A stretch of DNA of 64,000 nucleotides from Candidatus Azambacteria bacterium (GTDB taxonomy: Bacteria > Patescibacteriota > Minisyncoccia > GWC2-36-17 > WO2-46-25). A program made the translations under genes and the position numbers. Within the stretch, counting starts at the first letter, position 1; the number at the start of each line of letters is the position of its first letter. The notes under the pieces are model-generated. The model did no database searches, was not told where the DNA came from, and was given only the letters and a program-made list of their open reading frames with translations. The stretch spans positions 5,801-69,800 of the forward strand of contig JACRAK010000019.1 of the NCBI GenBank assembly GCA_016234725.1. The letters run 5' to 3'. Shown here in pieces: positions 4,235 through 34,260 of this stretch.

Positions 4235-5437
4235 ATGAAGGACTTGAAGATCTTCTCCGTTTCCGAATACGTGGAGCGCTTGAACGCGCTTTTATATGAA
4301 CACGATGCAGTGGTTGAAGGCGAGGTCTCGGAATATCGGGTCAACCAGCAAAAGTGGATATTTTTTAAGATCAAGGACGAAGGAGCGGTGCTCGAATGTT
4401 TCAGCACCGTGTTTCGCATCCGTGCACCGCTTGAAGACGGGATGCGCGTACGCGTCTATGGCAGGCCGGGCATTTATGCAAAAAGCGGGCGCTTGAGCAT
4501 GAACGTCGAATGGGCAGAGCCCGCGGGCGAGGGCGCGCTGAAGCGCGCGTTCGAGCTGTTGAAAGCGGAGCTTGAAAAAGAGGGGTTGTTCGCACAAGGC
4601 CGTAAGCGCCCATTGCCGAGCATTCCGAGGACGATAGGGCTTATCGCGTCGAAAGAATCCGCGGCATACGGCGACTTTTTGAAAGTATTGGGCCAGCGCT
4701 TCGGCGGACTCACGATATATGTCATGCATGTGCAGGTGCAGGGCGCGGAAGCGGTTTCGAATATCGCAGATGCATTCGCGTATTTCAATGCGCATCACAA
4801 AGAGCTCGGGCTTGATTGTATCGCGCTCATCCGCGGCGGCGGGTCGCTTGAAGATCTTGCGGCGTTCAATTCGCGCGAGGTGGCGTATGCGGTTTTTGGG
4901 TCCGTGGTGCCGGTGGTGGTGGGCGTGGGGCATGAGCAGGATGTTTCGATCGCCGATTTCGTCGCGGATCTTCGCGCATCAACGCCGTCAAATGCGGCGG
5001 AGCTTATGGTGCCGCACCGTGCCGATATCGCGCGGTTCGTCGATGCAATGGCAAACACCATGACGTATCAAATGGATACGCTCCAGAGCGACGCGCGAAC
5101 GCGCATCGATGATGCGGTGGGCGCGCTCGACGGGGTGGTAACGGCGCGGTCCCACGAGATAGGCCGGATGCAGGAGCGCATTTTCCTTCGTTTGAATTTT
5201 TTTCACGAGCGGACTATAATGCAGCGGTCAAAAATCGACGGGTTGGTCCGCTTGATGCGGAGTTTCAGCCCTCACGCGGTGCTTGAGCGGGGGTATGCGA
5301 TCGTGAAGAAAGGGGGCGAGGTGGTGTCAAGCATCCGCAATCTCAAGCCGAAAGATTTAGTGTATGTGGAATTGAAAGATGGTGGATTTTCTGCTAACGT
5401 ATTGAATCAGGAATCCAGAATCAGGAATGAAGAATAA
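4235..5437 (+). CDS. xseA: exodeoxyribonuclease VII large subunit
   Basis: 400 aa with an N-terminal OB fold and an ExoVII_L core (GGGS.EDL, RASTPS). The small-subunit gene follows directly. Confidence 0.85.
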   Translation: MKDLKIFSVSEYVERLNALLYEHDAVVEGEVSEYRVNQQKWIFFKIKDEGAVLECFSTVFRIRAPLEDGMRVRVYGRPGIYAKSGRLSMNVEWAEPAGEGALKRAFELLKAELEKEGLFAQGRKRPLPSIPRTIGLIASKESAAYGDFLKVLGQRFGGLTIYVMHVQVQGAEAVSNIADAFAYFNAHHKELGLDCIALIRGGGSLEDLAAFNSREVAYAVFGSVVPVVVGVGHEQDVSIADFVADLRASTPSNAAELMVPHRADIARFVDAMANTMTYQMDTLQSDARTRIDDAVGALDGVVTARSHEIGRMQERIFLRLNFFHERTIMQRSKIDGLVRLMRSFSPHAVLERGYAIVKKGGEVVSSIRNLKPKDLVYVELKDGGFSANVLNQESRIRNEE

Positions 5438-5476
5438 TCTGTGGCACACATTCATAATTCCTTATTCATAATTCAT
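5403..5476. repeat. intergenic tandem-octamer palindrome (gaatcagg x3, then the reverse complement attcctta/attcata)
   Basis: Read directly: gaatcaggaatccagaatcaggaatgaagaat ... cattcataattccttattcataattcat. Confidence 0.7.
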
Positions 5477-5678
5477 GAGCAAAAAATTTGATTTTGCAAA
5501 AGCATATCAGCGGCTGGAAGAACTCACCAAGCAGTTTGAGTCCGGCGAGCTGTCGCTTGAAGAGGGGCTGAAGCGGTTTGAGGAAGGGCTTGCGCTCGCA
5601 TCAGAGTGCCGGCAATATCTCGCGCAGGTGGAGAATAAGATCGTCGAGATAAAAAAGAAATTCAACGTAAAAGAGTAG
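5475..5678 (+). CDS. xseB: exodeoxyribonuclease VII small subunit
   Basis: 67 aa; FE..LE.LE.IV..LE.GELSLEE...F..G motif; lies downstream of xseA. Confidence 0.8.
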   Translation: MSKKFDFAKAYQRLEELTKQFESGELSLEEGLKRFEEGLALASECRQYLAQVENKIVEIKKKFNVKE

Positions 5679-5680
5679 CC

Positions 5681-5760
5681 CATAAAGTCTCTAAAGTCGA
5701 AAGTCCATAAAGTGATGAATTTTACTTTTGACTTTAAGGACTTTACAGACTTTATTGACT
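5681..5760. repeat. intergenic tandem-octamer palindrome (cataaagt units, then actttaag/actttaca units)
   Basis: cataaagtctctaaagtcgaaagtccataaagt ... acttttgactttaaggactttacagactttatt. Confidence 0.7.
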
Positions 5761-5767
5761 TAATTCT

Positions 5768-6415
5768 ATGAAAGACCACATCGTTTTCGATCTGGAAACA
5801 CAGCATGAGTTTTCCGAAGTAGGAGGAAGGGACTATCCTCATTTATTGAAGGTGTCCGTGGTGGGGTGCTATTCATACGTGCAGGATAAATTTTTTACGT
5901 TCGAAGAGGCGGAGATCCCGGCATTTGAAGCGATGCTCAAAAACGCGGGGCTCGTCATCGGGTTCAATACGAAGTATTTTGATTACGCGGTTATCCAGCC
6001 GTATCTGAAAGAGGTGGTGATAAAAACATTGCCTGCATGCGACCTTATGGAGGATGTTACGAATGTGCTCGGCCATCGGCTTTCGCTTGATTCGATCGCG
6101 CAGGCGACGCTCGGTACGCAGAAAAGCGGGCACGGGCTTGATGCGATCCGCTATTTCCGGGAAGGGAACATGAAAAAGCTTAAAAGCTATTGTCTTGACG
6201 ATGTGCGCATTACCCGCGATATCTTCGAATACGGAAAAGAGCACGGCAATGTGAAATATAGCTCGAAATACAGCCCTGATCTGAATTCAGTTCCCGTGGA
6301 TTGGAAACAATACATTTCGCCTGCGGGCGAGCCTGTGTCTGCATCAGCATCCCTTTCCTCAGAAAAAGATGCGCCCTCGGTGAACCGCGAAACGGGAAAC
6401 TACTCTTTGTTTTGA
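5768..6415 (+). CDS. RNase H-like 3'-5' exonuclease family protein
   Basis: DEDD-like motifs (VFDLET, FN.KYFD, YCLDD) with a low-complexity C-terminal tail. Confidence 0.55.
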   Translation: MKDHIVFDLETQHEFSEVGGRDYPHLLKVSVVGCYSYVQDKFFTFEEAEIPAFEAMLKNAGLVIGFNTKYFDYAVIQPYLKEVVIKTLPACDLMEDVTNVLGHRLSLDSIAQATLGTQKSGHGLDAIRYFREGNMKKLKSYCLDDVRITRDIFEYGKEHGNVKYSSKYSPDLNSVPVDWKQYISPAGEPVSASASLSSEKDAPSVNRETGNYSLF

Positions 6416-6486
6416 GATCTTGAAACATGAATCTTGAAACTCGAATCTTATGTTTCGGGTTTCAGGTTTTACGTTTCAAGTTTTAA
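6415..6486. repeat. intergenic tandem-octamer palindrome (cttgaaac units, then gtttcagg/gtttcaag units)
   Basis: tcttgaaacatgaatcttgaaactcgaatc ... gtttcgggtttcaggttttacgtttcaagtt. Confidence 0.7.
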
Positions 6487-6491
6487 GCTTC

Positions 6492-7700
6492 ATGAAGCGA
6501 ATCTACCTCGATTATGCGGCGACAACGCCGGTCGATAAAAAAGTGCTTGCGGCCATAATGCCGTATTTTTCCGAGCGGTTCGGCAATCCATCATCGGTGC
6601 ACGGGTATGGGCAAGAGGCGCTCGTGGCGCTTGATCGCGCGCGCCACGCGGTGGCGGATATGCTCGGGTGTTTGAGCCAAGAAGTGATATTTACCGGTTC
6701 CGCGACAGAGGCAAATAATCTCGCGCTCGGCGGGGTTGTGCACCAAGCCCTGGAAAAGGGAAAGCCCGTGCACATCATCACCTCCTCGATAGAACACGAA
6801 TCGGTGGAAAACCCGCTCATGCAGCTTGCGCAGGGTCCGAATGTTTCGGTGACGCATATCCCTGTTTCTCGAGACGGGTTCATTGACTTGGATAAGTTTC
6901 AAAAAGCGCTTACCGGGCATACGGTGTTGGTTTCCGTTATCTATGCGAATAATGAGATCGGCACGACCCAGCCGATCTCCCGAATCGCGGATATCATACG
7001 AACGCATAATAAAAAGTTTCAGGTTTTCCCCCTGCGGGGGATCTCCCGAAGGGAGACAAGTTTCAAGTCCAAAGTTCTGTTCCACACCGATGCGGCACAG
7101 GCGGCATATTATCTGAACATGAAAACAGATGAGCTGGGCGTCGACCTGATGACGCTCTCCGGGCACAAGATGTACGCGCCCAAAGGCGTCGGAGTGTTGT
7201 ACGTGAAAAAAGGAACGCCGCTGACACCATTGATAGTGGGGAGCGGGCAGGAATACGGAAAACGGTCCGGTACGGAAAATATTCCCGGCATTGTGGGTAT
7301 GGGCGAGGCATGCGCGCAGATACAGGAAAATAAGGAAATAGTGGAAAAAATAAAAAAATTGCGCGACTATTTTATTGCAGAAGTGCTGGGGAAAATTAAT
7401 ATCGCCTCACTTAACGGCGCACAGGAAAATCGTTTACCGGGAAATGCGAACATGCTGTTTAAAGGCGTTCGTGCGCAGGATCTTATCGTGATGCTTGACG
7501 GCGAGGGGGTCGCGGTGTCTGCGGGGTCCGCGTGCCAGTCCAAGGCGCTTGCATTTTCGCACGTGCTTTCGGCGATCGGGCTTTCCGAGAAAGACGCGCG
7601 ATCGTCCATACGGTTCTCGTTCGGCAAATATACGACAAAAAAAGACATTGACTACACCGTTGCGGTCTTAGTAAAATTGATAAAAACATTATATAAATAA
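6492..7700 (+). CDS. cysteine desulfurase (IscS/NifS family, class V aminotransferase)
   Basis: RIYLDYAATTP, HTDAAQ, SGHKMY.PKG and the catalytic SAGSAC loop. Start chosen at MKRIYLDY; the upstream 14 codons lie in the repeat element. Confidence 0.85.
   Translation: MKRIYLDYAATTPVDKKVLAAIMPYFSERFGNPSSVHGYGQEALVALDRARHAVADMLGCLSQEVIFTGSATEANNLALGGVVHQALEKGKPVHIITSSIEHESVENPLMQLAQGPNVSVTHIPVSRDGFIDLDKFQKALTGHTVLVSVIYANNEIGTTQPISRIADIIRTHNKKFQVFPLRGISRRETSFKSKVLFHTDAAQAAYYLNMKTDELGVDLMTLSGHKMYAPKGVGVLYVKKGTPLTPLIVGSGQEYGKRSGTENIPGIVGMGEACAQIQENKEIVEKIKKLRDYFIAEVLGKINIASLNGAQENRLPGNANMLFKGVRAQDLIVMLDGEGVAVSAGSACQSKALAFSHVLSAIGLSEKDARSSIRFSFGKYTTKKDIDYTVAVLVKLIKTLYK
7016..7067 (+). repeat. 35-nt double-hairpin element (gttttccccctgcgggggatctcccgaagggagac) flanked by gtttcagg/gtttcaag, inserted in frame in the desulfurase CDS
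   Basis: Two hairpins, ccccc-tgc-ggggg and tctccc-gaa-gggaga. A near-identical copy (1 mismatch) lies at 16011-16045. It adds about 16 aa (FQVFPLRGISRRETSFK) before the conserved VLFHTDAAQ. Confidence 0.8.
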
Positions 7701-7714
7701 CCTTTTTATATACT

Positions 7715-8968
7715 ATGTCTCCTATTTTTAAAACCATTCTTGTTGCGTCATTGGCGTCGCTTGTTGTTTCCGTTCTTTTATTTGTCGGCCTTATCGGCAT
7801 TATGCAAACCGCCGGCATCGACTTTTTAGGTATGGGGTTTGGAAGATATCTTCCCGAGCGGGTGATCATAAAGGAAACGGTAAAAGAACCGCAGGTGGTT
7901 GAGAAATATATTCCCCAGACCACGCAGGAACAGATGATCGTGGACATCGTGAAGCGGTCGCAGGATGCGGTCGTGTCAGTGATCGCTACAAAGGATCTTC
8001 CGGTATTGGAACAGTCGTTCGTCGATCCGTTCCAGGGGTTCGGGTTTCCTAATGATTTTTTCGGCGGGTTGCAGGTCCCGCAATATCAGCAGAAAGGAAC
8101 GGAAAAGAGAGAGGTTTCTTCCGGTACGGGCTTCATCGTTTCGTCCGACGGCCTTGTGCTGACCAATAAGCATGTCGTGAGTGATGACAATGCGGAGTTC
8201 ACGGTGCTTATGAACAATGGCGACAAATACCCCGCGACAGTGCTTGCGCGCGACCCGGTGCAAGATATCGCCATTCTTAAGATAGAGAAAAAAGGCCTTT
8301 CGGTGCTTGCGCTCGGCGATTCGGATGCCATTGAAACAGGGCAGACGGTGATCGCGATCGGCAACGCGCTCGGGGAATTCCGTAACACGGTGTCGGTGGG
8401 CGTTATTTCGGGAATGTGGCGCACGATAACCGCGCAGGGCGGCGGCACGATGGAAACGCTTGAAGATCTCATTCAAACGGACGCGGCGATCAACCCGGGG
8501 AACTCCGGCGGGCCGCTGTTCAATCTTGCGGGCGAGGTGATCGGCATCAATACCGCGATGTCGCAAGCGGCGCAAAACATCGGGTTTGCGCTTCCGGTGA
8601 ATAAGGCAAAACGCGATATCGAGCAGGTAAAAAAGACAGGAAAGATAAGTTATCCGTTCCTCGGTGTGCGGTATGTGCTTATTGATGCCGATCTGCAAAA
8701 GAAAAATGATCTCCTGGTCGATTACGGCGCGCTGATCTCGCGCGGGGAAACGAGCGCCGATCTCGCGGTAACGCCCGGCTCTCCCGCCGACATCGCCGGT
8801 ATCGTTGAAAATGATATTATTCTTGAGGCAAACGGCAAGAAGATCACGAAAGATAATCCGCTCGCAAAGACAATTCAGGCGAGCAAAGTAGGGGACGCGA
8901 TTCGTTTGAAAGTGCTTCATAAAGGAACGGAAAAAACAGTCACCGCAACGCTCGCTGAGCGGAAGTAG
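7715..8968 (+). CDS. htrA: HtrA/DegP-family periplasmic serine protease (trypsin domain plus PDZ)
   Basis: N-terminal TM, catalytic H (TNKHVV), D (DIAILKI) and S (GNSGGPL), and a C-terminal PDZ. Confidence 0.85.
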   Translation: MSPIFKTILVASLASLVVSVLLFVGLIGIMQTAGIDFLGMGFGRYLPERVIIKETVKEPQVVEKYIPQTTQEQMIVDIVKRSQDAVVSVIATKDLPVLEQSFVDPFQGFGFPNDFFGGLQVPQYQQKGTEKREVSSGTGFIVSSDGLVLTNKHVVSDDNAEFTVLMNNGDKYPATVLARDPVQDIAILKIEKKGLSVLALGDSDAIETGQTVIAIGNALGEFRNTVSVGVISGMWRTITAQGGGTMETLEDLIQTDAAINPGNSGGPLFNLAGEVIGINTAMSQAAQNIGFALPVNKAKRDIEQVKKTGKISYPFLGVRYVLIDADLQKKNDLLVDYGALISRGETSADLAVTPGSPADIAGIVENDIILEANGKKITKDNPLAKTIQASKVGDAIRLKVLHKGTEKTVTATLAERK

Positions 8969-9180
8969 GAGCCGCGACTCGCTCCTCCCTTTCGATTCTT
9001 TCTTGCCCCGTCATTTGTTTATACATACACTGAATTACGTGTTTTATTAGCGATAGCATAATAAACGTGTAATTTAGAAAAAAGAGGAAGACGGGGCAAG
9101 AAAGAATCGAAAGGGAGGGGCTCGCTGGATTGCTGTTTGTTGCCAATCGTTTCACTCTTGGACAAACAGGGAACATCTCG
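8965..9180. repeat. composite intergenic repeat region
   Basis: A 31-bp inverted repeat (8982-9012 against 9090-9118, 29/31 bp) encloses an AT-rich loop. A copy of the dispersed 'cgattggcgacaaacagcagtccagcgag' family lies in reverse orientation at 9120-9170. Confidence 0.7.
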
Positions 9181-9193
9181 TACCCGCGAAGAA

Positions 9194-9224
9194 TTAGCAC
9201 TCTTGACCAAGGAGTGCTAATTTG
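9194..9224 (+). terminator. putative intrinsic terminator (ttagcactc-ttgaccaag-gagtgctaa, then ttt)
   Basis: 9-bp perfect stem followed by a T-rich run, downstream of htrA. Confidence 0.4.
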
Positions 9225-9243
9225 TATATACTGGAAATCATGG

Positions 9244-9310
9244 ATCTTGAACCCTGAACCTTGAAACCTGTTGTGTCAAATGTTTCAAGTTTCACGTTTC
9301 AAGTTTCAGG
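9244..9310. repeat. intergenic tandem-octamer palindrome (cttgaacc/cttgaaac, then gtttcaag x3)
   Basis: tcttgaaccctgaaccttgaaacctg ... gtttcaagtttcacgtttcaagtttcagg. It overlaps the first 15 codons of the annotated long ORF. Confidence 0.7.
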
Positions 9311-9315
9311 AATGT

Positions 9316-11937: not shown

Positions 11938-12812
11938 TGATCAAATGTTTTTGTGTTGCTCTTGCTTATGATCTTTTCTTGCCCCGTCTTTTATTTATAA
12001 ATATCAGGAAGACGGGATTGCGATTTGTGTCTGCGCACAATGCGCAGACAAATCGGGAATATCTTAATCCGCCAGTTGGTGGACATCCTTTCATTTCCGT
12101 TATGCTTATAGTTTTCTTTTCCTTTCTTTTCTGGCTCGTTGCAGAGCTTCGCATAACAGCGTTAAGCGAGAGTGTTTTTCCGCTCGTGATTTTGACATTG
12201 TTTGCATTTTCCGCAATGTGGTATCTTTCCGGGCGGTTCAATGTGTCCGTGCTCGCAGGCGTATACGGCGGTATTTCCGCGGCGCTTTTTTCGCTTGTCC
12301 CGAGCGGACTACCCGCGCACATCATCGCGGTGTGCGCTGCCGCAGGATGGTATGCGTTCATGCATGCCGTGGCTGAGCGCCGTCCTCGCGGCGCAGTGCT
12401 CGTTTCTTTTGTCGAGGTGTTTGTTCTTTATTTTGCGGTGCTCGCGTGGCACGCGTTTTCCCATATTTCCTTATTCCTTGCGCTTACCATGATAGCGCTT
12501 GGCACAGCGCTGATCTTTTTCAATTCGGTCACGGTCATGTGCGAGCTTGGCATGTGGCTGCGCGTGCGGTTGTTCATGTTTTCGCTTGGCGTCGGCGTGA
12601 TGATTGCCGAGCTGTTCGCGGTGCTCAGCAAGCTTCCGTTTCATATCGCGAACATCGACTTCCTCCTCTTTTTTGTCTATTATATAGTGTGGGACGTGAC
12701 CGTGCGGTATTTTTCCATCCGCTTTACCAAGCGCGCGCTTGCGGTCAATGTGCTGTTGCTTTTTTTGGGGTTTGGCACAGTGCTCGCTTCTGTGCGATGG
12801 CTCCCTGTTTGA
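11937..12812 (+). CDS. hypothetical integral membrane protein (more than 6 TM helices)
   Basis: Long hydrophobic ORF. The true start may be downstream, for example at MLIVFFSF near 12093. Confidence 0.45.
   Translation: MIKCFCVALAYDLFLPRLLFINIRKTGLRFVSAHNAQTNREYLNPPVGGHPFISVMLIVFFSFLFWLVAELRITALSESVFPLVILTLFAFSAMWYLSGRFNVSVLAGVYGGISAALFSLVPSGLPAHIIAVCAAAGWYAFMHAVAERRPRGAVLVSFVEVFVLYFAVLAWHAFSHISLFLALTMIALGTALIFFNSVTVMCELGMWLRVRLFMFSLGVGVMIAELFAVLSKLPFHIANIDFLLFFVYYIVWDVTVRYFSIRFTKRALAVNVLLLFLGFGTVLASVRWLPV
11982..12016. repeat. hairpin ccccgtctt-[tatttataaatatcagg]-aagacggg, member of the 'cttgccccgtc' family
   Basis: Shares cttttcttgccccgtc with 8995-9012. Confidence 0.6.
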
Positions 12813-12876
12813 CCAAGAGCAAAGCGATTGGCGACAAACAGCAGTCCAGCGAGGCGATAGCCGAGTCGCGGCTTCC
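12805..12876 (+). repeat. dispersed repeat (ccaagagcaaagcgattggcgacaaacagcagtccagcgaggcgatagccgagtcgcggc)
   Basis: Matches 9120-9170 (reverse complement, about 90%) and 15583-15629 (cagtccagcgaggc.ata.gccgagtcgcggc). It starts at the stop codon of the membrane protein. Confidence 0.7.
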
Positions 12877-12909
12877 ATAATCCTCGTGAACAACGCCATA
12901 TTTTTACGT

Positions 12910-13014
12910 CGCCATCGTCTCCATTTCTTCTTTTATCTTAACGGAAGCGCAGCCCTTCATTATATTTATAAAAAGGGCGTGAGAGGATTAAAGAAGAAAT
13001 GGAGACGATGGCGG
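12910..13014. repeat. 24-bp perfect inverted repeat (cgccatcgtctccatttcttcttt / aaagaagaaatggagacgatggcg) enclosing an AT-rich loop of about 55 nt
   Basis: Read directly. The loop contains 'tatatttataaaa', like the loops at 9013-9089 and 11991-12008. Confidence 0.75.
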
Positions 13015-13037
13015 CCATGCCAAATGGAAGGTAAATA

Positions 13038-13775: not shown

Positions 13776-13803
13776 TTTTGTTAATGTCCTAGGTACGCAC
13801 TTT

Positions 13804-14088
13804 TGGCGGTTTTGATCTCCCAAAGAAAACCGCGCGCAGGGCGAGCGAGCATGGTGCCGTTTCCTGTGTTTCATTCTTTAACCCGCTCGAGCATTCCAGC
13901 GATGCTCTCGCTTATGCTCGCCGCGTGATGGTGCGGTGGGCTACGCCATTATACCGCACCCTCCAAGCTCCACGCGGCTCCGCAGGTTAGCGAACAAAAC
14001 ACAGGAAACGGCGAGCGAGTCCGAGGTCGAGCGGCGCGTTCTCGCGGGGAACGCGAACGCGTGTTTTCTTTGGGAGATCAAAACCGCC
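13804..14088. repeat. MITE-like nested palindrome (26-bp perfect terminal inverted repeats, ggcggttttgatctcccaaagaaaac, about 230 bp apart)
   Basis: Outer inverted repeats at 13804-13829 and 14063-14088. Inner inverted repeats cgtttcctgtgtt / aacacaggaaacg and a central hairpin ggtgcggt...accgcacc. No ORF is credible across the palindromes. Confidence 0.65.
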
Positions 14089-14151
14089 ATATGTGCGCGC
14101 ATTATAGTAAGCACTTTCCGAGAGAAAATATTTCTGCCATAATAAAGACAT

Positions 14152-15018: not shown

Positions 15019-15134
15019 CGGAAATAGTCAAAACGTCGAGCCCTCGCTCGACTTTTTTGTTCTAGGTAAACCGTCATGTGTGTGTCATTTCCCAATGTTG
15101 ACTTTTCCTTTCCCTATCCATATACTCCTGCATA

Positions 15135-15916
15135 TGGATAATTTTGTTATTGCATCACTTAATGTTGGCGGGCATACGGAAGCGATGGACTTCGAGAAAA
15201 CCGACCAGTGGCATAAGCTCCTCGAGCTCACCTATGCGGCGTGGCGGGTGGCGGATATTGCCATCGAAAACGAGTTTCTCAAAAGCAAGGTAAAGCAAAC
15301 CGCAGCGGAGATCCTGGTGGAATATCCGAACGCGCTTGGTAATAGAATGAAAATGGAAGAGTTGTCTTCCCGCATCCGGTCCCAACGCGCACTTCTTTCG
15401 CTTGCGCAAAAGACAAGCAATTCACGCGAGCTCAATTTTACGATCTTAAAAAACGAATATCACAAAATTGGTACAGTGGTTACCCAGCTTATGCCTCCTG
15501 TGGCTACAGAACAGCACCATTATGGTGTTCCAAAAAAAGGAGCTCCCGTTTTGTCTGAATCCGCCGGCTGGCGGAGAAGTTACAAAACGCAGTCCAGCGA
15601 GGCCATAGGCCGAGTCGCGGCGGAGTCGCAAAAACAGCAAGAAAAGGTGGTTGATAATATGGTGGAAGTGCGCAGCGCAGAACGCCCGGAAACACATCGT
15701 GCTGAGCGCTCCGAGGTACTCACCGAACGCCAGAAAAAGATATTCCAGTTTTTCAGCAAAAGAAAGGGGGAAAAAATACGCTTAAAAGAGATCGCCCAGG
15801 TATTCCCGGATCTGACCGACAGGACGGTGCGCAATGATCTTCGAGACCTGTGTACGAAGAAACTCATAGTGCGATCGGATGGGCATGGGCAAGCAAGTTT
15901 CTACAAGTTGGTATAA
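15135..15916 (+). CDS. hypothetical protein with C-terminal winged-helix DNA-binding domain
   Basis: Start chosen at MDNFVIASL after the galU stop. The C-terminus (KIRLKEIAQVFPDLTDRTVRNDLRDL) is DeoR-like wHTH. A dispersed repeat copy at 15583-15629 is in frame. Confidence 0.45.
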
Positions 15917-15924
15917 AAAAATAA

Positions 15925-16110
15925 TAAGGAAGATAGGGAAGTTCCCTATGATAATAAGGAAATACCTTTTTTGAATAAGGAATTTCCTTTTTTATTCCCT
16001 ATCATTTCATGTTTTCCCCCTGCGGGGGATCTCCCGAAGAGAGACGGGTTCCATGTTTCATGATTCAAGTTCCATGATTCAGGTTCCCGGTTTTATGTTT
16101 CAGGGTCGTG
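15925..16110. repeat. compound intergenic repeat: aataagga palindrome, 35-nt double-hairpin element (16011-16045), then gttccatg/gtttcatg tandem units
   Basis: The copy of the element inserted in the desulfurase gene (7023-7057) differs by 1 nt. Confidence 0.75.
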
Positions 16111-16257
16111 TTTCCAGTTATCCACAATTGGTGATGTTGCGGTATTCCTGTGGGCACATGATTCCTGTATACTGGTAAGTAATGGCACAAATACTTTGTT
16201 TATTGATACGCTTTTAAGTCGGTTGTTTTAGCTATAGGTTTTGTGCGTTTGGAACGG

Positions 16258-16286
16258 TTGACCTTTATTTGTCTGTACTTTATAAT
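16258..16286 (+). promoter_or_regulatory. sigma70-type promoter (TTGACC, 17-nt spacer, TATAAT)
   Basis: Near-consensus -35 and -10 boxes with a 17-nt spacer, about 570 nt upstream of the 1154-aa surface protein start. Confidence 0.6.
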
Positions 16287-16292
16287 GGGGGA

Positions 16293-16857
16293 AAGTGAAT
16301 AGGGTGGTGCGAAGGCGCCATCCGTTCGTATTGGTTTGATGTCAGCTCTTATGCCGGCATCGCGTGGCGTGTGCCACGCGAGCCATGCTTGCATGAGAGG
16401 TGCCTTCAAATGAGACGATGGAAAAGCGATTGAAAAGGAAGAAACGCAAGATCATTGAAAAGTGAATAGGAAGAAAGGCAGAGTAACTTCCCTTTAAGTT
16501 TGTATATGATCTCGAAGAGAAAAGTCGGGTCGGTGTTATGCATCCTGAGCCTGTCCTGAGTTTATCGAAGGGCATGTCGAAGGGTTGCACAATAGAACTT
16601 GATTCTAATTTAAGATCATTCGGTCACGATGGTTATGGCTTGAACGAGAGCAGTCATTATTAATTTTTAAGTAACATAGGACTTACGCAGTTGGATGCAG
16701 TTCGAGGCGCAAGCGAGAAGCGACTGAGCCATACGCAGTAGTATGGTGATGGAGCTTCAAAGCGAAGCAACGAAGAAATGCACCGACTGCGTAAGTCCTA
16801 TAACAAAGCAGATTTCACTCACCGGAATGGTGGGCGGGTCTGCGTAAGCAAAGCATT
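16293..16857 (+). promoter_or_regulatory. long ORF-free 5' leader with structured elements, including a 15-bp perfect inverted repeat (16677-16691 / 16786-16800)
   Basis: About 565 nt with no credible ORF. taggacttacgcagt ... actgcgtaagtccta encloses about 95 nt. Candidate riboregulator or sRNA. Confidence 0.4.
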
Positions 16858-19800
16858 ATGAGTAATCAGCCTTTAGTAGGCCAGAATGCGAAAAAGAAAT
16901 TATCGCAATTTCTTTCCGCAACGCTTGCCTTCACAACGACTGTTTCATTGTCCGGCTTTGCCCTGATGTTCGCGTTCACCGCGAGCGCACAGGTTGCAAC
17001 GTTGTCAGACGGTGATGTGGTCAAGACCGCGGATAATCCCGATGTATACATCGTGAAGATGCATCCGCATGGTCAGTACGCGGGTTGGAAGCGTCTTATT
17101 CTCAACCCGGAAGTGTTCAATCTTTATGGACACCTCAAGTGGTCAAACATCAAGACGGTAAACCAGGCGACGGTTGATGCGTATCACACGTCTGCATTGG
17201 TACGAGGAGAGAATGATCCTAAGGTATATGTCTTGGCGCCAAACGGCGACGTAGGAACAAAAACCTGGATCACAAACGAAGCAGAGTTCCTCGCGGCAGG
17301 TTATGACTGGAGTCAGATCGCGCAGGTAAACAACAAAGAGCGCGACATGTACACGACTGCTGGTTCACAGCAGCAGGTACCGGCAGCGACAGGAACGGGC
17401 TTGATGGTATCGTTGGCGTCAAACACCGCGGCGGCAGGTTCTATCGTATCTGAGCTTACGGGCTCTGGTACTGGATTGACAGCAGACGGCGCACAGGCAC
17501 AGGTATCAATGCTCACCGCGAATTTCGCTGCGGGTTCAGATGGCGATGTAGCGGTAACGACATTGAAGGTAAAGAGAATGGGCATTTCAGCGGACGCTGA
17601 CATCGCGAATGCGTACTTGTACGATGGCGCGACCCGCGTTGCGGAAATGACCAACATCTCTTCAACCTACATTTCATTCGTGAATGCATCTGGTTTGTTC
17701 ACGGTTTCTCGTGGTACAAGCAAAGCGATCACGGTGAAGATGGATGTGGCAAATGGCACTTCAGCAGGCAAGACAATGGCGTTCGCGATCAACGTGGCAT
17801 CTGATGTTGTGGCTGGCACAGCTACGGTTTCAGGTTCATTCCCGATCGTGGGTAATGGCATGACGACCGCGAATGTTGGCGACCTTGGTAAGATCACGAT
17901 CGCAGACGTTTCGAGCTCAACTACCGTTGATCCGGGTCAGACCGGCTACGAAGTATGGAAGTTCAGCGTTGCGGCAGCGGACCAGAAAGTGAGTGTCTCC
18001 CATATTAAATTGACGAACGTCGGTTCAGTTGCGACAACTGACCTTACGAACATCAAATTGATGGACGGCGCGACACAGCTTGGCGCGACAGCGGCAACCC
18101 TTGCGGTTGACGGCACAGTGACATTCGACCTTTCTTCAAACCCGTTGGTTATCACCGCGGGCCAGACGAAAAACCTGAGCGTGAAAGCAGACATCGTCGG
18201 TGGTACGACTCGCACATTCCGCTTCTCTGTACAGAGATCAGCGGATATCGTAGCGATGGACACCAACTACGGTGTTTACCTTAAGCCAAACCAGACCGAC
18301 TCATTCTTGGTTATCCAACCGGCAGCAGCGACAACGATCAATTCAGGAACATTGACGATTTCAATTGATCCTGCATCGCCGACAGGCAATGTGGCGGCTG
18401 GTTACACCGACCAGGAATTGGCGCGGTTCGCTTTCAAAGCGTCCGGCGAGGCAGTGAAGGTTTCATCCCTCACCGCAACTTCAACCACGACTGGCACAGG
18501 AGGTTTGAACAACGCGAAGTTGTACTTGGATGGTACGCAGGTTGGCGCGACCGCTGACATTGCAACCACTCCGAACACGACATTCACTTTCGGCAATTCA
18601 TTCATCATTCCTGCGGGCGCGACCAAGACCTTGGTCATCAAAGCAGAGGTGAAGACAGCTGCAGGTGTTGCGTACAATGCGGGCGAAACTATTCAGGCGA
18701 AATTGGTTGCGGGTTCATTGAACGCGCAGGGCCAAACCTCAATGACTTCGATCAGTACGTCAGCGGCAAACGGCAACACCTTGACGGTGCAGACCGGCTT
18801 GTTGACGACATCAGCAAACACTGGATTGGCAAATGCAACTACTGCGTTGCCGACTGGTGTTAAGGGCTCAACAAACGTGAAGATTGCATCATTCGTGATC
18901 ACCGCAGGCTCGGGTGAAGGCGCTGATGTAAGCCAGATCGTAGTCAAAAACGGTGCGACAGAAGTGGCGCTTGGCCGCGACTTCCAGAACTTGACATTGA
19001 AGAGCGGTTCAAGCCAGATCGGCACGACCGTTGGTACATTGTCAACAACTGCAGCTAATACCTACACGTTCAATCCGTCTCCTGCGATCAGCATCAACGC
19101 TGGCCAGCAGTACGTAGTTGATGTGTACGCAGATGTGTTAAGCAGCGCGTCAAACGCGTATGCGGTGGGCACCGGTGTTGTGCACACGCCGGTTATTCTT
19201 GACAGCGTGACCGCAACTAGCAAATCAACCAATAGCGACGCAAGCGACGCGACCGACCGGAACGGTCAGAGCGTGTTCATTGCGCTCGCAGGTTCGTTGA
19301 CGGTAGCGGCGGCGTCCGACATGCCGATCGCACAGAACCGCGCAATGGGCCAGACAGGCCAGACCTTGGCAACCTTCAAGTTGACCACAGGCACTCCTGA
19401 AGCGGTGAACATCTCAAGCATCACGGTAACTGACCTGTTGTCGGCGACCGCGACTGCGGCGACCGGTTCGGTAACGAATCTTTCGTTGTGGAATTCTGCA
19501 GGCGTACAGGTTGGCTCAACGGTTGCTTCTATGAGCAGCTCGGCAGTCGGCTTGAACGTGCTCGCGACCTTCAATGGTCTTACGCTGAACGTTGCAAAAG
19601 ATAAGTCAGAAGTGTTGACCTTGAAAGGCGACATGAACACCTATCCGAACGCAGTGTCAGGTAGCGCGCACATGTTCAAAGTGCAGGGCAATGGCGATGT
19701 AACGGCAGTTGGCGCGACGTCAGGCCAGACCATCGCAATGACCGGCGCGGCGATCTCGGGTAATAACCAGAGAGTGTATCGCGCAGAGCTCACCGTCGCA

Positions 19801-20322: not shown

Positions 20323-20325
20323 TAG

Positions 20326-20856
20326 ATCTCAAAACTCGCATACTGCTTGTGACAGTATGATGAGTTTACCCGCCTAAGTTTCTTTAAAGAAATTTTGGCA
20401 GGGACCGCAAAGAGCCCCGAATTTCGGGGCTCTTTGCATTTCTGCTTTCGCGTTTTTGTTTTCGTTATTACTCAATCTTACGAGGTGCGACCTCGTAAGA
20501 TTGAGAGATACTCAAGCAAACACCTCCCCCATTTCGGGGGAGGTGTTTTGCGTTTGCGGAGGCGTTTTGTTTTACCCGCAATCGCCTTGGCGACGGCGGG
20601 TGTTTAGGGATGTTTTGCGTTTGCAGATGTATTTTGCGTTTTTGTTGTTATGCCAATATTCGATGTCATTCTACTCCGATCGGAGTAGAATGACATGGTG
20701 TGTGGAATTGGCGTTAATAATTCTTATGAGACTAAGTCTCGTAAGAATCAAACATCTCCCCAGAAATAGGGAGATGTTTTGTTTTAGTGGATGTGTTTTG
20801 TGTTTTTGTGATTTTTTATATTCGGTCGTCCGACGACCGAATATTGTTTTACCTCG
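20326..20856 (+). repeat. array of at least 8 different perfect GC-rich hairpins, each followed by a T-rich tract (tgttttgcgttt-like)
   Basis: Hairpins at about 20332-20367, 20408-20436, 20473-20505, 20521-20543, 20664-20699, 20721-20743, 20752-20773 and 20818-20844. Spacing is irregular and the motif gttttg[ct]gttt recurs. Confidence 0.75.
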
Positions 20857-20899: not shown

Positions 20900-20906
20900 T
20901 GCTGGT

Positions 20907-21214: not shown

Positions 21215-21243
21215 AATTTGAAAGGAATGATATAATTATTAGT

Positions 21244-21558: not shown

Positions 21559-21621
21559 ATTTTACAGCTCGCAGAAAAGATGGGGGTTCAGCTTAAGGCC
21601 TAAGCATTCTCTATTTAACCG

Positions 21622-23907: not shown

Positions 23908-23948
23908 TACTTTATACTTTTAAACCCTTAAACATTTAAACTTTTCCC

Positions 23949-24419: not shown

Positions 24420-24482
24420 CCACTAATTTTTTAAACCCTTATACTGTTAGACATTTGAACTTTATATCTTTAAACTAAATCT

Positions 24483-24986
24483 ATGGAATCACAAGAGCAA
24501 GCACAACAAAACAAAAAAAGAGTCCCAAAAGCGCTAAAGATCGCGGGGATTGCAATTGGTGCACTTGCCGTTTTTCTAATAACAGCGTTTTACGGCCTTT
24601 CGTGGTATGGAGAGTGGAGCTTGAGGCAAGACGTTGCACGGATCATTGAGCAGCAAAACCGGCCATATCTTGAAGACACCTATGGAGGAAAAACGCCAAA
24701 AGAAACACTTGAGCTTTTCATTGCTGCAGTCGAAAAAGAGGACTTTACTCTCGCAAGCAAATACTTTGTTTTGAGCAAACAAAGAGAATGGGAGAGCGGA
24801 TTGGGAAAGATAAAGGAAAGGAATAATTTGAATTTACTGCTCGAAAAGATGTATAAAATGGAAGACAGGGGATTTTTAGGCCCCGATTCATTTCAAATGG
24901 CGGCAAAAGATGAAAAAGGCGTTTTTATGACTTTCATATCATTTATTAAATATCCATCTGGTATCTGGAAAATTCAAGAACTCTAA
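24483..24986 (+). CDS. hypothetical membrane-anchored protein
   Basis: N-terminal TM followed by a soluble domain. Confidence 0.45.
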   Translation: MESQEQAQQNKKRVPKALKIAGIAIGALAVFLITAFYGLSWYGEWSLRQDVARIIEQQNRPYLEDTYGGKTPKETLELFIAAVEKEDFTLASKYFVLSKQREWESGLGKIKERNNLNLLLEKMYKMEDRGFLGPDSFQMAAKDEKGVFMTFISFIKYPSGIWKIQEL

Positions 24987-24987
24987 A

Positions 24988-30806: not shown

Positions 30807-30807
30807 T

Positions 30808-32958
30808 ATGAACAGAGAAGAAGCGAAAAAACTGTATATAAATATTGCGAAAGGAGGAGTATTTGCCTCCCTGCTTTCGCCCGTGGTGCTTTCGGCGCCG
30901 TTCTTTTTTCCGTTTATCGTACCAAAGACATTGTTTTTTCAAGTGGCGGTTACGGTCGCATTGTTCTTTTATATCGTGGTGGTGGCGCTTGATAAAAGAT
31001 ACGCGCCGAAATTCGATACGCTTACCAAGCTCGTGTTCGCGTTTTTTGGCGTCTATGTGCTTGCCGCGGCATTGGGGGAAAACCCCGCACGGAGTTTTTT
31101 TGGCACCTATGAGCGGATGCTTTCGGTGGTGAATATGGCGCATTTCGTGGCGCTGTATCTGATAGTGAGGTCGGTGTTCGTGTCTCAAAAGGACTGGTTG
31201 TGGCTTTTGCGCGCATCGGTGGGCGCGAGCGTGCTGGTAAGTTTATACGGTGTGGGCCAAAAAGTTGGCATTGATTGGTTTTATCATGCGGGCATCGATC
31301 GTATCGATTCCACTATCGGCAATGCGGCGTTTGTTGCGGGGTATCTCATATTTGCCGTATTTTTTGCATGTATGGTGCTGGTGAAGGACGGCAACCCCGT
31401 ATTTCGCGCGTGTGCGGCAAGTTCGCTCGCGCTGAACGCGGTCATTATCTACTTCACCGGCACGCGCGGTGCGGCAGTTGCGCTTGCGGCGGCGAGCATT
31501 GTGCTTCTTGCCGCATATTTTTTCAGACCGGTCCGCGCGCCGCTCATAAAAAAGGAACACATGAAATGGGCGCTGACCGTGATCGCACTCGCGCTGCTTG
31601 CGGTGGTGGCGCTTGAAGGGAAGGGCGTGTACCGGTCGTTTCAGCGCTTCTCATCGATCTCGCTTGCCGATGCCACGGTGCAGACACGCCTGCTTTCCGT
31701 TTCCACGGGTTGGGACGGGTTTTTGGCTCGGCCGGCGCTTGGATGGGGCCCGGAGAATTACAACCTTGTATTCGATAAATACTATAATCCCAAACTGTAC
31801 CCCACCGAGAATTGGTTTGATCACGCGCACAATATTTTTTTTGATATCGCGACGACCATGGGCATTGCGGGGCTTATCGCATATGCGGCGCTTCTTTTGT
31901 ATCTTGTGTTCCGCACGATCTCGTTCGCGCGAGCCGCTCCTGAGAATTATTGGGTTGGGGTATTTGCATGCGCGCTCGTCGTTGCGTATTTTATGCAGAA
32001 CGTATTTGTGTTCGACAGTTTGGCGACCTACCTTCCGTTCTTTATCTTGCTTGCATTCGCAAGCAGCGGATTTAAGTTGGGCAACGCAGATGAGCGCGCC
32101 CCAGAAGACAAGGCGAGAAAATTTTATAACCCATCGCTCACGATCATCGCGGTGCTTTTGCCGGTTTTTGCGGTTGTGGTGTATTGGGTTGATGTGCGGC
32201 CGGCGCTTGGCGCGTATCATACGGTGGCGGCATTGCAGATCCCGGTATCCTATGCGGGCGATGCGCTCGAGCGTTTCAAACAGGCGCTTGCGTACAGCAA
32301 TTTCGGGCGCGAAGAGATCCGCGGAAAGCTCGCCGATTACACGAGCGATGTATTATATGAAAAAGACATTACGGACAGCGAATTGAAGCGCCGCATCGCA
32401 GAGTTTACGATACAAGAAATGGAAGACAGCATCGTGCATGAACCGCTCAATTTCAGGAATTATCTCTATTATGCGAATTTTTTAAGCGGCAATCACGAGG
32501 TGCTCGCGGCAGTTGGCATTTCTGACGCGCTTGCGCGTGCGGATGAAACACTCGCGCGCGCACAGGAGCTCGCACCGCAGAAACCGATACTGTATCTCCA
32601 GTGGGGAAAGGTGAAATCGCTGGAAGGGGATGTCCGGGGAGCGGTGCTGTTGTTTGAAAAGGCGGTCGCGCTGAACCCCGCCGCTATCGACTCTCAGGTG
32701 CGCCTTGCGTTCGCATACCGAATGGCCGGTGCGCGCGAGCGGTCGCTTGAAGTTTCCCGCGCTGTTCTCGGCACCGGCGCACAGCTGGATATTCGCACCT
32801 ATATCGAGTTTGCCGAAAATTTTGCGGCGCTTGGCGCATATGATGAAGCGGCGGCTATGGCGCGCAAAGCGGCCGAGCTCGACCCTTCGCTTGCAGAGCA
32901 GGCAGAGGCGTTCATGCGGACGCTTGATGCGAAAAAAAGCGCACCGGCCAAACAGTAA
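30808..32958 (+). CDS. Wzy_C-like polytopic membrane protein with C-terminal TPR domain (paralog 3)
   Basis: Start chosen at MNREEAKKLY immediately after the previous stop. The list ORF from 30727 overlaps the upstream gene. Confidence 0.75.
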   Translation: MNREEAKKLYINIAKGGVFASLLSPVVLSAPFFFPFIVPKTLFFQVAVTVALFFYIVVVALDKRYAPKFDTLTKLVFAFFGVYVLAAALGENPARSFFGTYERMLSVVNMAHFVALYLIVRSVFVSQKDWLWLLRASVGASVLVSLYGVGQKVGIDWFYHAGIDRIDSTIGNAAFVAGYLIFAVFFACMVLVKDGNPVFRACAASSLALNAVIIYFTGTRGAAVALAAASIVLLAAYFFRPVRAPLIKKEHMKWALTVIALALLAVVALEGKGVYRSFQRFSSISLADATVQTRLLSVSTGWDGFLARPALGWGPENYNLVFDKYYNPKLYPTENWFDHAHNIFFDIATTMGIAGLIAYAALLLYLVFRTISFARAAPENYWVGVFACALVVAYFMQNVFVFDSLATYLPFFILLAFASSGFKLGNADERAPEDKARKFYNPSLTIIAVLLPVFAVVVYWVDVRPALGAYHTVAALQIPVSYAGDALERFKQALAYSNFGREEIRGKLADYTSDVLYEKDITDSELKRRIAEFTIQEMEDSIVHEPLNFRNYLYYANFLSGNHEVLAAVGISDALARADETLARAQELAPQKPILYLQWGKVKSLEGDVRGAVLLFEKAVALNPAAIDSQVRLAFAYRMAGARERSLEVSRAVLGTGAQLDIRTYIEFAENFAALGAYDEAAAMARKAAELDPSLAEQAEAFMRTLDAKKSAPAKQ

Positions 32959-32972
32959 TACACAGAAGTGCG

Positions 32973-34178
32973 TTGTACCCTGAACGCAAGAAGGTGTATA
33001 ATAGAAGGGAAATGCCATTTCAACCGGTACAATCAGATCCTGAGTACCATAGTTTTCAAAGGCGGCAATCTTTTCTGTGGGTTGCGCTGTTGGGCGTTGT
33101 TTTGCTTATCGGCGGCGTAGTGTTCTTGATCGCGTATCAGCTCATGCGCGGCGGAGGGGGAAACGGCGGCGCGCCGTCTGCGGTGGTGATGCCTGCGGTG
33201 AATGCGGTGGCATCGATCATACGCGGAGAAGCTGTTTCACAGGGCGATTATTTCCTGATGAGTGAAGTATCCTCGACCGATAAGCGCCTGAGAATTTTCA
33301 AAGTGTATTATGCGCCATTTTCAAAAGAAGAGATCTTTGCGATCCCGTGGCGCGATGGCGCGGCAGCTCCCGTGGTCGCGGAGTACGGCGAAAATCTTGC
33401 GGTATTCCTTGATTCCGGGCGGAGCATAGTGATCACGCGGGAAGGGAAAACGGTGTCGCTTTCCAATTCTTTTTTTGTGCCGGAAGATCCTCACTTCACT
33501 ATTTCTCCCGATGGGAAGAAAATGGTGTATTTCAAGCAATTCTCTTCGCTCGGTACGAAAAGCCTCACGATCCGTGATCTTGAAAAGAACGAAGATGTGT
33601 TCGGTTGGCCGATAAACTCTCCCGCTTCCGAGACGTGCGATTTTAGCGGATGGTCGGCAGATGGAGGAAAAGCGTATTGCACGAGCGTAAAAAACGGCAG
33701 GGTGATGGTGAAAGCGGTTGATGTGCGGCGATATTCATATGCCGTTGCCGCATCATTTTCCGGCGTGCGGGATGCGCAATTCTATCCCGCGCATGCGCTT
33801 GTTGTCGCGGCAGACAAACAAAGCATATTCACGTTCGATATCACCACAAAAGAAAAAAAGGATGTCCTTGCGCTTGCGGGCGAAGCAGTGGAAAGCGTTT
33901 TTCTTGCGCCCGACAGATCAAAGATAGTGTTTACCGCGGGCGGTGCCGTGCATGCGGTGGGGCTTGATGGCAGTGGTAAAAAGGAGATCGATCATGCAAC
34001 CCGCATACTTTCATTATTGCCTGACGGCGCTCGCGCGCTGGTAGAGGTGTCTGAAGACGGAGGAGCGCATTATGCCATCATCGGTATAGACGAAGAGAGC
34101 CATGCGGAGTTGGGCGGCATTACCAAGGATATCGTGCATGCCCAGTTCATCGGCTGGTTCTCAGGAGGCGTGAAGTAG
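32973..34178 (+). CDS. hypothetical membrane-anchored beta-propeller-like protein
   Basis: TM helix near the N-terminus and a repetitive beta-rich C-terminal region. Start uncertain; the alternative is MPFQ at 33012. Confidence 0.5.
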   Translation: MYPERKKVYNRREMPFQPVQSDPEYHSFQRRQSFLWVALLGVVLLIGGVVFLIAYQLMRGGGGNGGAPSAVVMPAVNAVASIIRGEAVSQGDYFLMSEVSSTDKRLRIFKVYYAPFSKEEIFAIPWRDGAAAPVVAEYGENLAVFLDSGRSIVITREGKTVSLSNSFFVPEDPHFTISPDGKKMVYFKQFSSLGTKSLTIRDLEKNEDVFGWPINSPASETCDFSGWSADGGKAYCTSVKNGRVMVKAVDVRRYSYAVAASFSGVRDAQFYPAHALVVAADKQSIFTFDITTKEKKDVLALAGEAVESVFLAPDRSKIVFTAGGAVHAVGLDGSGKKEIDHATRILSLLPDGARALVEVSEDGGAHYAIIGIDEESHAELGGITKDIVHAQFIGWFSGGVK

Positions 34179-34260
34179 GAATCATGAATCAGGAATTATG
34201 AATAAAAAGCAGGATGTGCTATCCTTGATTCTTGATCCGCTATTCCTAATTCTTGACCAA
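34178..34260. repeat. intergenic tandem-octamer palindrome (gaatcatgaatcaggaat … attcttgatccgctattcctaattcttga)
   Basis: Same gaatcagg unit family as 5403-5476. Confidence 0.7.

Follow-up and report, generated by a model that had tools for sequence, protein, structure and literature searches.

What are the long inverted repeats that fill several gene spacers and run up to the start codons in a 64-kb stretch of DNA from Candidatus Azambacteria (candidate phyla radiation, CPR; Patescibacteria)? We refer to this whole stretch as the window (W), and loci of its relatives, taken from genomes and metagenomes, carry L-numbers. A first-pass annotation of the sequence had attributed a single architecture to nine loci of the window. 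Our analysis confirmed this architecture, which consists of a tandem array of a 7-nt unit, a loop and the reverse-complement array, at five of them (A to E, Table 1), while the loci at 15925-16005, 16046-16110, 23908-23948 and 24420-24482 proved to be different. The interpretation that we favor, with a probability of about 0.6, is that the elements are lineage-specific hypermutable heptanucleotide microsatellites arranged in inverted (convergent) pairs and not a conserved regulatory class. Because hairpins of this fast-changing type are known from other bacteria and those of the window are missing from its closest relatives, A-E are probably not a conserved regulator.

Architecture and position of the five elements

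The repeated unit had been described as an 8-mer, which was not borne out. Tandem Repeats Finder gave a period of 7, or of 14 for a double unit, in A, C, D and E, with 3.3-5.3 copies per arm, and a period of 9 mixed with 7 in B. An autocorrelation scan likewise detected 6 period-7 clusters and 4 period-14 clusters in the window, compared with 0.1 of each in block shuffles, and period 8 appeared only once, at 23909-23947. In a gapless palindrome scan with 30-nt arms, A-E scored 22-25 out of 30, while the best shuffle reached 21. RNA folds were then judged against 200 dinucleotide shuffles per locus. Of the long imperfect hairpins that had been proposed, those of B (-27.9 kcal/mol, z -6.2), C (-31.8 kcal/mol, z -7.0), D (-21.4 kcal/mol, z -3.2) and E (-24.4 kcal/mol, z -2.8) were more stable than their shuffles; A (-13.0 kcal/mol, z -0.5) has true inverted symmetry but only a weak hairpin.

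In addition, we noted that arms slid by 7 or 14 nt pair nearly as well as arms in register. The Watson-Crick pairs out of 21, in register and slid, were 15 and 15 for A, 16 and 15 for C, and 17 and 16 for D. This suggests that the complementarity is a property of the unit consensus and that the hairpins can take several registers. Given this pairing in shifted registers, which was the outcome of a mirror-order test of the unit variants, there was no evidence of a helix selected base for base or of a recent single inverted duplication.

Elements A, B, C and E each take up essentially the full stop-to-start spacer between co-oriented genes. The right arms of A-E stop 0-12 nt short of the ATG, which confirms the proposed location of the arrays just upstream of start codons, and no GGAGG is present in these spacers. 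In A, the xseA stop codon (5435-5437) lies within the left arm, and the right arm reaches into the xseB ATG (5475); the left arm is truly translated, with XseA gaining 10 residues by overrun of the stop. B ends ~10 nt 5' of the ATG at 5768. In E, the upstream stop codon TAG belongs to the first unit, and the dnaG ATG is at 34260. The nearness of the arrays to the ATG is largely geometric, because the spacers of relatives measure only ~8-22 nt and an element that fills its spacer must touch both the stop and the start. C and D had also been described as extending into the open reading frames (ORFs) of the cysteine desulfurase and clpB. This overlap is an artefact of ORF calling from upstream in-frame ATG or TTG codons, since translation, judging from the conserved N-termini, truly begins at ATG 6492 in the desulfurase (MKRIYLDYAAT) and at ATG 9315 in clpB (MQFNKFT).

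All five elements are probably transcribed, as they are located in an operon (A, B and C), in the dnaG spacer (E) or in a 5' leader (D). A promoter scan found no correctly spaced -35/-10 pair within any of A-E, and the nearest promoter-like site upstream of A-C is at ~3622-3650, suggesting that A-C are probably intercistronic RNA. D lies 3' of a CIRCE operator and a TTGACC-18-TATACT promoter and thus makes up essentially the entire clpB 5' leader, from a predicted transcription start at ~9239 to the ATG. The CIRCE and the -10 box of clpB are kept in all of the Azambacteria relatives examined (L052, L003, L004 and L041), and this conserved operator overlapping the promoter would imply HrcA-type control of clpB in this lineage.

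The units had been described as differing from locus to locus while the architecture recurs. Several different units do exist; however, A, C, D and E, together with the direct array G, share the consensus NKGAAWC (GWTTCMN in the right arms), and only B (AAAGTC/GACTTT) stands apart. Array G, which corresponds to the listed locus 16046-16110, uses the unit family of the right arms of C and D. Over 25 nt, the left arm of E and the right arm of A are complementary at 92% of positions. When each element was compared by BLAST with the window and the relatives, only unit-level matches of 22-25 nt were recovered, between A and E and between C and D.

Table 1. Positions and composition of the heptamer elements and of other repeats and sites in the window
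Feature	Position	Strand	Composition	Context
A	5403-5476	+	left GAATCAG-type x4.6 (5404-5435), loop 5436-5449, right ATTCATA-type x3.9 (5450-5476)	xseA/xseB junction
B	5681-5760	+	(N)AAAGTC x4 (period 9/7), loop, GACTTT(N) x4	spacer between xseB and RNase-H-like gene
C	6415-6486	+	left TTGAAAC/ATGAATC x5, loop, right GTTTCAN x5	spacer between RNase-H-like gene and cysteine desulfurase
D	9244-9310	+	left TGAACC/TTGAAAC x3-4, loop, right GTTTCAN x4	clpB 5' leader
E	34172-34257	+	left GGAATCA/TGAATCA x4.5, 23-nt loop with small hairpin, right CTTGATT-type x5	spacer before dnaG
Array G	16048-16110	+	~9 direct GWTYCAN heptamers, no inverted partner, fold z -1.7	
52-nt mini-element, copy 1	7017-7068	+	TTTCAKG TTTTCCCCCTGCGGGGGATCTCCCGAAGRGAGAC ..GTTYCAWG	between GTTTCAN units in desulfurase ORF
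52-nt mini-element, copy 2	16005-16056	+		directly 5' of array G; absent there in L004
CIRCE operator	9194-9220	+	TTAGCACTC-N9-GAGTGCTAA	overlaps clpB promoter
clpB promoter	9203-9232	+	TTGACC-18-TATACT; -35 TTGACC at 9203, -10 TATACT ending 9232	
Non-family element	15921-16010	+	90 nt, 21-nt direct repeat, nested AAGGAA/TTCCTT stems, then T-runs	
Non-family array	23909-23947	+	direct period-8 TTTAAAC-N; 0 kcal/mol, no fold	before ATG 23949
Non-family array	24429-24478	+	direct TTTAAAC-N-type; -1.4 kcal/mol, no fold	before ATG 24483

Orthologous junctions and array turnover in relatives

The nearest XseA relatives of the window are Azambacteria/Patescibacteria assemblies, and the closest relatives that were compared show about 84-92% protein identity. 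An assembly or amplification artefact could be rejected, because the Logan assembly L001 independently reproduces A and B and because unrelated projects and independent assemblies show the same architecture (L001, L003, L050, L002, L006 and L055).

The first-pass annotation had proposed a functional role for the elements, such as a regulator site or an attenuator, and had set the comparison of orthologous junctions in relatives beforehand as the refuting test. The outcome speaks against a conserved functional class: the orthologous junctions lack A, D and E, C is replaced there, and only B is shared, in rearranged form. At the xseA/xseB junction, six relatives have 8-15-nt spacers and no A; they include L002, L003, L004, L041 and L050, the last of which shares B. 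At the junction between xseB and the RNase-H-like gene, the AAAGTC hairpin is common to W and L050, differing in unit order, unit number and loop. B is missing in L002, L051, L004 and L057, and L003 has another heptamer hairpin at this junction (ATAACTN x5, then NAGTTAT x3). Where the window has C, between the RNase-H-like gene and the desulfurase, a 200-nt hairpin of TAATTTC/GAAATTA and CCCAA/TTGGG units is found in L002, L050 and L052, a simple hairpin with a single GTTTCAT in L004, a 10-bp hairpin in L041, and none in L051 and L003. One entire 200-nt heptamer hairpin separates L002 from L051, whose flanks are nonetheless 96-97% identical. D is present only in W; it is missing in L052, whose clpB shows 91% nucleotide identity, and in L003 and L004, and the clpB leader of L041 carries direct AAAGCTA heptamers. 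In the dnaG spacer, L058, L059, L060 and L062 have a GC hairpin and a TATGAT/TATAAT box near the ATG, and no E.

Some further observations were made at these junctions. In L004, a small GIY-YIG (UPF0213-like) gene (~5912-6215) is inserted exactly in the xseA/xseB spacer, where the window has A. It is flanked by the inverted repeat AATCCCCACACTCACAGGGCTT / AAGCCTTGTGAGTGTGGGGAT, and a similar CCCCCACA/TGTGTGGGG palindrome is found in L055. In L002, an N-run scaffold gap at 12333-12432, with the desulfurase 5' end duplicated on both sides, is an assembly artefact beside the 200-nt heptamer hairpin. The htrA gene (7715-8968), which lies between the desulfurase and clpB in the window, is missing there in L052, while L003 keeps a C-terminal remnant upstream of the CIRCE.

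Heptamer arrays are patchy in their distribution. There are 13 period-7 and 8 period-14 rows in the 64 kb of the window. In its close relatives, 104 kb contain 6 period-7 rows and show no excess, and a CPR group with 37% GC (L053, L055) has 22 period-7 and 3 period-14 rows in 23 kb. The period-7 excess is also seen in several other CPR contigs, and it was not seen in Streptococcus contigs from the same search. For example, L006, which is labeled Saccharibacteria, has an AGTCNNN/NNNGACT hairpin that ends 3 nt 5' of the ATG of a minus-strand methyltransferase gene.

The rate of change can be judged from L054 and L055, which are >99% identical over ~7.2 kb of alignment. There are 11 isolated substitutions, and the main differences are at arrays. 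The same 46 nt of folD are (GATTTAA)4 in L054 and (TGTCAAA)5 in L055, an equal-length swap of units; only L055 has a 33-nt palindrome, ATTCATCCCCCACATAATTATTTATGTGTGGGG, within a TAATTCN array, as well as a 30-nt duplication. From this pair of sequences, array turnover appears to far outpace point mutation.

Heptamer arrays also occur inside genes. In L053-L056, such arrays, and even a ~100-nt heptamer hairpin, are translated in frame in housekeeping genes, with examples in the L055 ORFs 6800-8110 (-), 5211-6257 (-) and 3752-4621 (+). In L055, (AAGATTT)n is read as KIKDLRFKI in both the cysteine desulfurase and a phosphomannomutase-like protein, and the reading frame runs through the ~100-nt hairpin (7298-7400), which lies between conserved motifs of the desulfurase. 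An array of (CTAAAAG/CTAAAAA)4 is present at the same codon position of the desulfurase gene in L052 (1160-1186), L003 (4451-4489) and L041 (3556-3585), that is, in relatives down to 61% XseA protein identity. At this position, the window has GTTTCAN units and a 52-nt mini-element (7009-7085), and L051 has GTTTCAG-like units. Judging from these sequences, the site appears to be a long-lived variable site in a protein loop. The mini-element is read in frame within the desulfurase as FQVFPLRGISRRETSFKSK. Its two copies in the window show 88% identity, with an identical core of 28 nt, and contain two small GC palindromes, CCCCCTGCGGGGG and TCTCCCGAAGGGAGA. It has the look of a tiny mobile or converted element tied to heptamer arrays.

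Origin of the arrays and alternative explanations

The architecture is real and non-random, and its kind is known from Xanthomonas and Beggiatoaceae; the window differs in its AT-rich units, in having several units per genome and in the filling of operon spacers. In Xanthomonas campestris and X. axonopodis, Rehm et al. 2015 (PMC4692102) described arrays of the heptamer GGGAATC, typically with ~4 copies. Of ~185 arrays per genome, 70-75 are convergent pairs able to form a stem-loop; ~90% are intergenic and near one ORF, their length and sequence vary between close species, the associated genes span functional classes, and the function is unknown (PMC4692102). Like the elements of the window, these pairs are complementary arrays of tandem 7-nt units (at least two units, 14 nt) that form a stem-loop, lie between genes and vary among relatives, and the unit GGGAATC fits the consensus NKGAAWC. 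However, the Xanthomonas arrays are built almost entirely from a single G-rich unit (GGGANTN; at least four G-tracts) with demonstrated G-quadruplex potential, whereas the window has several AT-rich units. Those of the window (GAATCAN, TTGAAAC and AAAGTC) contain no GGG runs and thus belong to a broader heptamer kind and not to the G-quadruplex subclass. In addition, the Xanthomonas arrays lie on average 28 nt from one ORF and 160 nt from the other, whereas the window elements fill stop-to-start operon spacers, and the host is a small CPR genome rather than Xanthomonas.

The second comparable system is that of MacGregor 2015 (PMC4679880), in which direct TAACTGA heptamers precede start codons in marine Beggiatoaceae, Cyanobacteria and Bacteroidetes and are proposed to bind S1, Csp or CsrA. 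As in the window, these arrays (2-6 copies) end a few nucleotides from start codons in spacers without a canonical ribosome-binding site; some lie inside ORFs, and the downstream genes have no common theme. In contrast, TAACTGA is one fixed unit, found in 169 direct sets and one inverted set with no predicted fold, while the window has inverted pairs and several units. Among the relatives, only L003 has TAACTGA-like units, in a hairpin with TAACTAA/TAACTGA-like repeats. As relayed in PMC4679880 and PMC4692102, Mrazek et al. 2007 found heptamers to be the commonest long simple-sequence repeats and attributed them to polymerase slippage; this class, which includes the cyanobacterial STRR heptamers, has a sporadic phylogenetic distribution and an intergenic bias. 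In those accounts of the work, the arrays are treated singly and the paired hairpin arrangement found in the window is not described. We found no report of heptamer repeats in CPR (Patescibacteria) in the searchable literature.

In the scenario that we favor, a short local heptamer in a spacer would be amplified by replication slippage in a 7-nt register, and intrastrand template switching (an inverted duplication) would give the inverted copy. Mutation by template switching at quasi-palindromes is well established. Both arms would go on expanding, contracting and homogenizing, and complementarity would be kept per unit and not base for base. Once transcribed, the elements would form long, register-slippery stem-loops ending just 5' of the start codon, and any effect on mRNA stability or translation would be at most incidental and non-conserved. 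Their persistence would reflect tolerance by spacers and, in related CPR genomes, also by some protein loops.

In-situ slippage by 7 nt and inverted duplication are suggested by units that can be traced to single local heptamers in relatives. First, the nine units of array G in W correspond to a single GTGTTTCATGG in L004, which would make array G an expansion of a local heptamer. Second, at the place of the (GTTTCAN)5 that forms the right arm of C in W, the L004 spacer ends in the native GCGTTTCATGATGCATG, which matches that unit. Third, the B unit GACTTTA resembles the native GACTTAATT beside the ATG, and the L003 unit AGTTATA resembles its own native AAGTTAATTT. Moreover, L004 has 30 nt more than L051, and these resemble an inverted copy, since diverged, of the local sequence before them. 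The pairing of A, C and D in slid registers also fits homogenized arrays, and direct-only arrays (array G and the clpB leader of L041) are possible precursors. The same scenario is favored by the excess of period 7, by the turnover seen at orthologous junctions, by the ordinary accessibility predicted for the start-codon regions and by the lack of any Rfam match.

Several observations weigh against this scenario. A/E and C/D share 14-nt double units, with 92% identity over 25 nt, and the shared NKGAAWC is not predicted by purely local independent origins; its explanation calls for ectopic conversion, dispersal or a constraint common to the loci. B has remained a strong hairpin in both W (-28 kcal/mol) and L050 (-32 kcal/mol) despite rearranged units and no more than 86% identity in the flanking gene, a retention that selection for structure would account for as well. 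In addition, the junction between the RNase-H-like gene and the desulfurase has hairpins in 6 of 8 genomes, with differing sequences. Finally, most intergenic arrays, in the Xanthomonas paper as well as here, are inverted pairs, which are commoner than passive slippage alone predicts.

The alternative that survives best, which we nevertheless consider unlikely, is that the elements are functional cis-acting RNA stem-loops of 25-30 bp, in which the sequence is free and the helix is kept, serving RNase III-type processing, 5'/3' stabilization or the tuning of translation. RNase III requires about two helical turns of duplex, and phage T7 employs intercistronic RNase III hairpins. Consistent with such a role, all five elements are on the coding strand, either in an apparent operon from ~3650 or 3' of the clpB promoter, and D starts within ~5 nt of the predicted transcription start. 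B is still a hairpin in W and L050 after its rearrangement, several relatives have hairpins at one shared junction, and the stems end before an AUG that is predicted to remain accessible. The genome context would also suit it: a Shine-Dalgarno sequence is missing at most window genes, with a clear GGAGG at only a few (40858 and 42306), and a TATAAT-like box lies 6-8 nt 5' of the ATG at many (e.g. 836, 37834, 58731 and 61108), which together suggest that leaderless or near-leaderless mRNAs may be widespread in this genome. However, the nearest relatives, despite synteny, lack four of the five elements or have something else in their place, A hardly folds, and pairing in multiple registers points to a property of arrays and not to a selected helix. 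The downstream genes (xseB, the RNase-H-like gene, the desulfurase, clpB and dnaG) also have no common theme.

More specific roles were rejected one by one. Start-codon occlusion was rejected since the predicted unpaired probability at positions -3 to +15 was 0.42-0.69 at the elements, the same as in 22 control genes (0.50 +/- 0.13). A permissive scan for intrinsic (Rho-independent) terminators flagged only the inner stem of C, with total matches at shuffle level, and the canonical terminators elsewhere in the window, such as those at 20400-20440 and 42118-42150, differ from A-E. An RNA thermometer or heat-shock leader at D was rejected because the AUG region has an unpaired probability of 0.69 and the hairpin is not in the clpB leaders of L052, L003 and L004. 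A scan of the whole window assigned A-E to no Rfam 15 family at gathering score. GANTC methylation sites, the resemblance to CRISPR repeats (GTTTCAA...) and a link to DnaG primase were dropped, as no feature of the sequence supported them.

A more speculative proposal, to which we give a rather low probability, is that an active process in some CPR lineages writes and rewrites heptamer arrays and small palindromes, both in spacers and in frame in essential genes. Such rewriting would be more than passive slippage and much faster than point substitution, and it could be ectopic conversion or a tiny mobile element with its own enzyme. Hints of it are the folD swap between L054 and L055, the 33-nt palindrome, the desulfurase hairpin, the 52-nt mini-element and the consensus shared by five loci; the window hairpins would be its intergenic footprint.

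That the hairpins themselves are small mobile or selfish units of the MITE, REPIN or foldback kind, inserted in spacers and spread by a trans-acting enzyme, is improbable. The earlier suggestion of a selfish element finds some basis in the 52-nt mini-element, which is present at two loci between GTTTCAN units, but the hairpins lack the hallmarks of a mobile family. The double units common to A/E and to C/D would be compatible with mobility, as would the 33-nt palindromic mini-element present in the heptamer array of L055 and not in the >99% identical L054, the 200-nt hairpin that is present or absent between L002 and L051, and the GIY-YIG gene with its flanking inverted repeats in the L004 spacer. 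However, the five loci have no shared termini, target-site duplication or common full-length sequence, the similarity found by BLAST being at unit level only. Empty sites in relatives show no clean insertion boundary, and the units are traceable to local single-copy sequence in relatives. REP, BIME and REPIN sequences are likewise imperfect palindromes between co-oriented genes, transcribed with the operon and variable among strains, but REPs have a conserved sequence of 20-40 nt dispersed by RAYT, whereas the window elements have tandem-array arms and no conserved full-length sequence. A Pfam scan of 50 window proteins turned up no RAYT (Y1 transposase), and the sole transposase-like gene of the window is an rve-family integrase with an HTH domain (IS-type transposase; 57130-58044, minus strand). 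The small dispersed repeats of Nostoc (21-27 nt), reportedly described by Elhai et al. in 2008 as tiny palindromic elements that recur at several sites, also in frame within ORFs, may resemble the 52-nt mini-element of the window and the 33-nt one of L055; this comparison concerns the mini-elements and not the heptamer hairpins.

We regard it as very unlikely that the arrays are bound by a protein of the cold-shock-domain, S1 or CsrA-like type, which would recognize single-stranded nucleic acid with a footprint of ~7 nt and would melt or stabilize the hairpin. Bacillus CspB prefers the heptamer GTCTTTG/T. The within-genome consensus NKGAAWC would suit such a protein, and the 7-nt period and start-codon position in a genome poor in Shine-Dalgarno sequences parallel the TAACTGA case (PMC4679880). 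However, the B unit AAAGTC is unrelated, relatives have other units at the same junction (ATAACTN, TAATTTC), and no candidate protein was identified. The hexamer GTTTCA is not enriched in intergenic DNA outside the arrays, and it was rejected as a general regulatory motif for this reason. Least credible of all are double-stranded DNA operators, iteron-like sites of an oligomeric regulator or promoter elements: the units do hold -35-like hexamers (TTGAAA, TTGACT and TTGATT, i.e. TTGAnn) and relatives have a promoter-like box in the spacer where the window has E, but the promoter scan found no correctly spaced pair inside any element, a 7-bp spacing turns successive sites to different faces of the helix, and the sites are unconserved in relatives, with units that vary by locus.

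Our results extend the heptamer microsatellite class, here in inverted pairs by start codons, to the candidate phyla radiation, whose genomes are small and tightly packed and in which a spacer filler of 70-90 nt is therefore conspicuous. Annotators should expect spurious N-terminal ORF extensions, as in the desulfurase and clpB here, and length polymorphisms of spacers. Should a dedicated mechanism lie behind the fast turnover of related contigs, CPR bacteria would have a new source of variation in their protein loops and leaders; if the arrays are plain slippage products, they would serve as strain markers and as a readout of peculiarities of replication and repair.

Gene context and other repeats of the window

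By Pfam, the genes of the window include uvrA, xseA, xseB, the RNase-H-like gene, a class-V aminotransferase (the cysteine desulfurase), htrA, clpB, dnaG and rpoD, as well as several Wzy_C/TPR proteins. Nearly all of them are on the plus strand, gene spacers are short, and the GC skew is >0 across the whole window. The tRNA-Asn at 37683-37754 is the sole Rfam 15 match at gathering score in the whole window.

The direct TTTAAAC-N arrays at 23909-23947 and 24429-24478 sit directly 5' of a gene of the 23S-rRNA-IVP family and of the gene after it. L060 (~390-420) and L062 (~200-320) share the second array, L062 with two copies. These direct arrays are candidates for a real cis element.

The element at 15921-16010 is 85% identical in L004. 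It lies at the start of an ORF-free region of ~940 nt (15917-16857) that is 77% conserved in L004 (14175-15325), includes a structured segment at 16335-16410 and precedes a protein of 1154 residues without a Pfam match. No Rfam match was found in this region, an E-value scan of 15850-16900 giving only sub-threshold chance hits, and it may be an uncharacterized RNA or a long leader.

Other spacers carry long near-perfect inverted repeats (8981-9121, 11965-12003, 12910-13013 and 13796-14097), with arms of 28-35 nt that are 94-97% complementary, and these form a class distinct from the heptamer hairpins. An arm of the palindrome at 8981-9121 is found again at 11965-12003, so that related copies lie on both sides of clpB.

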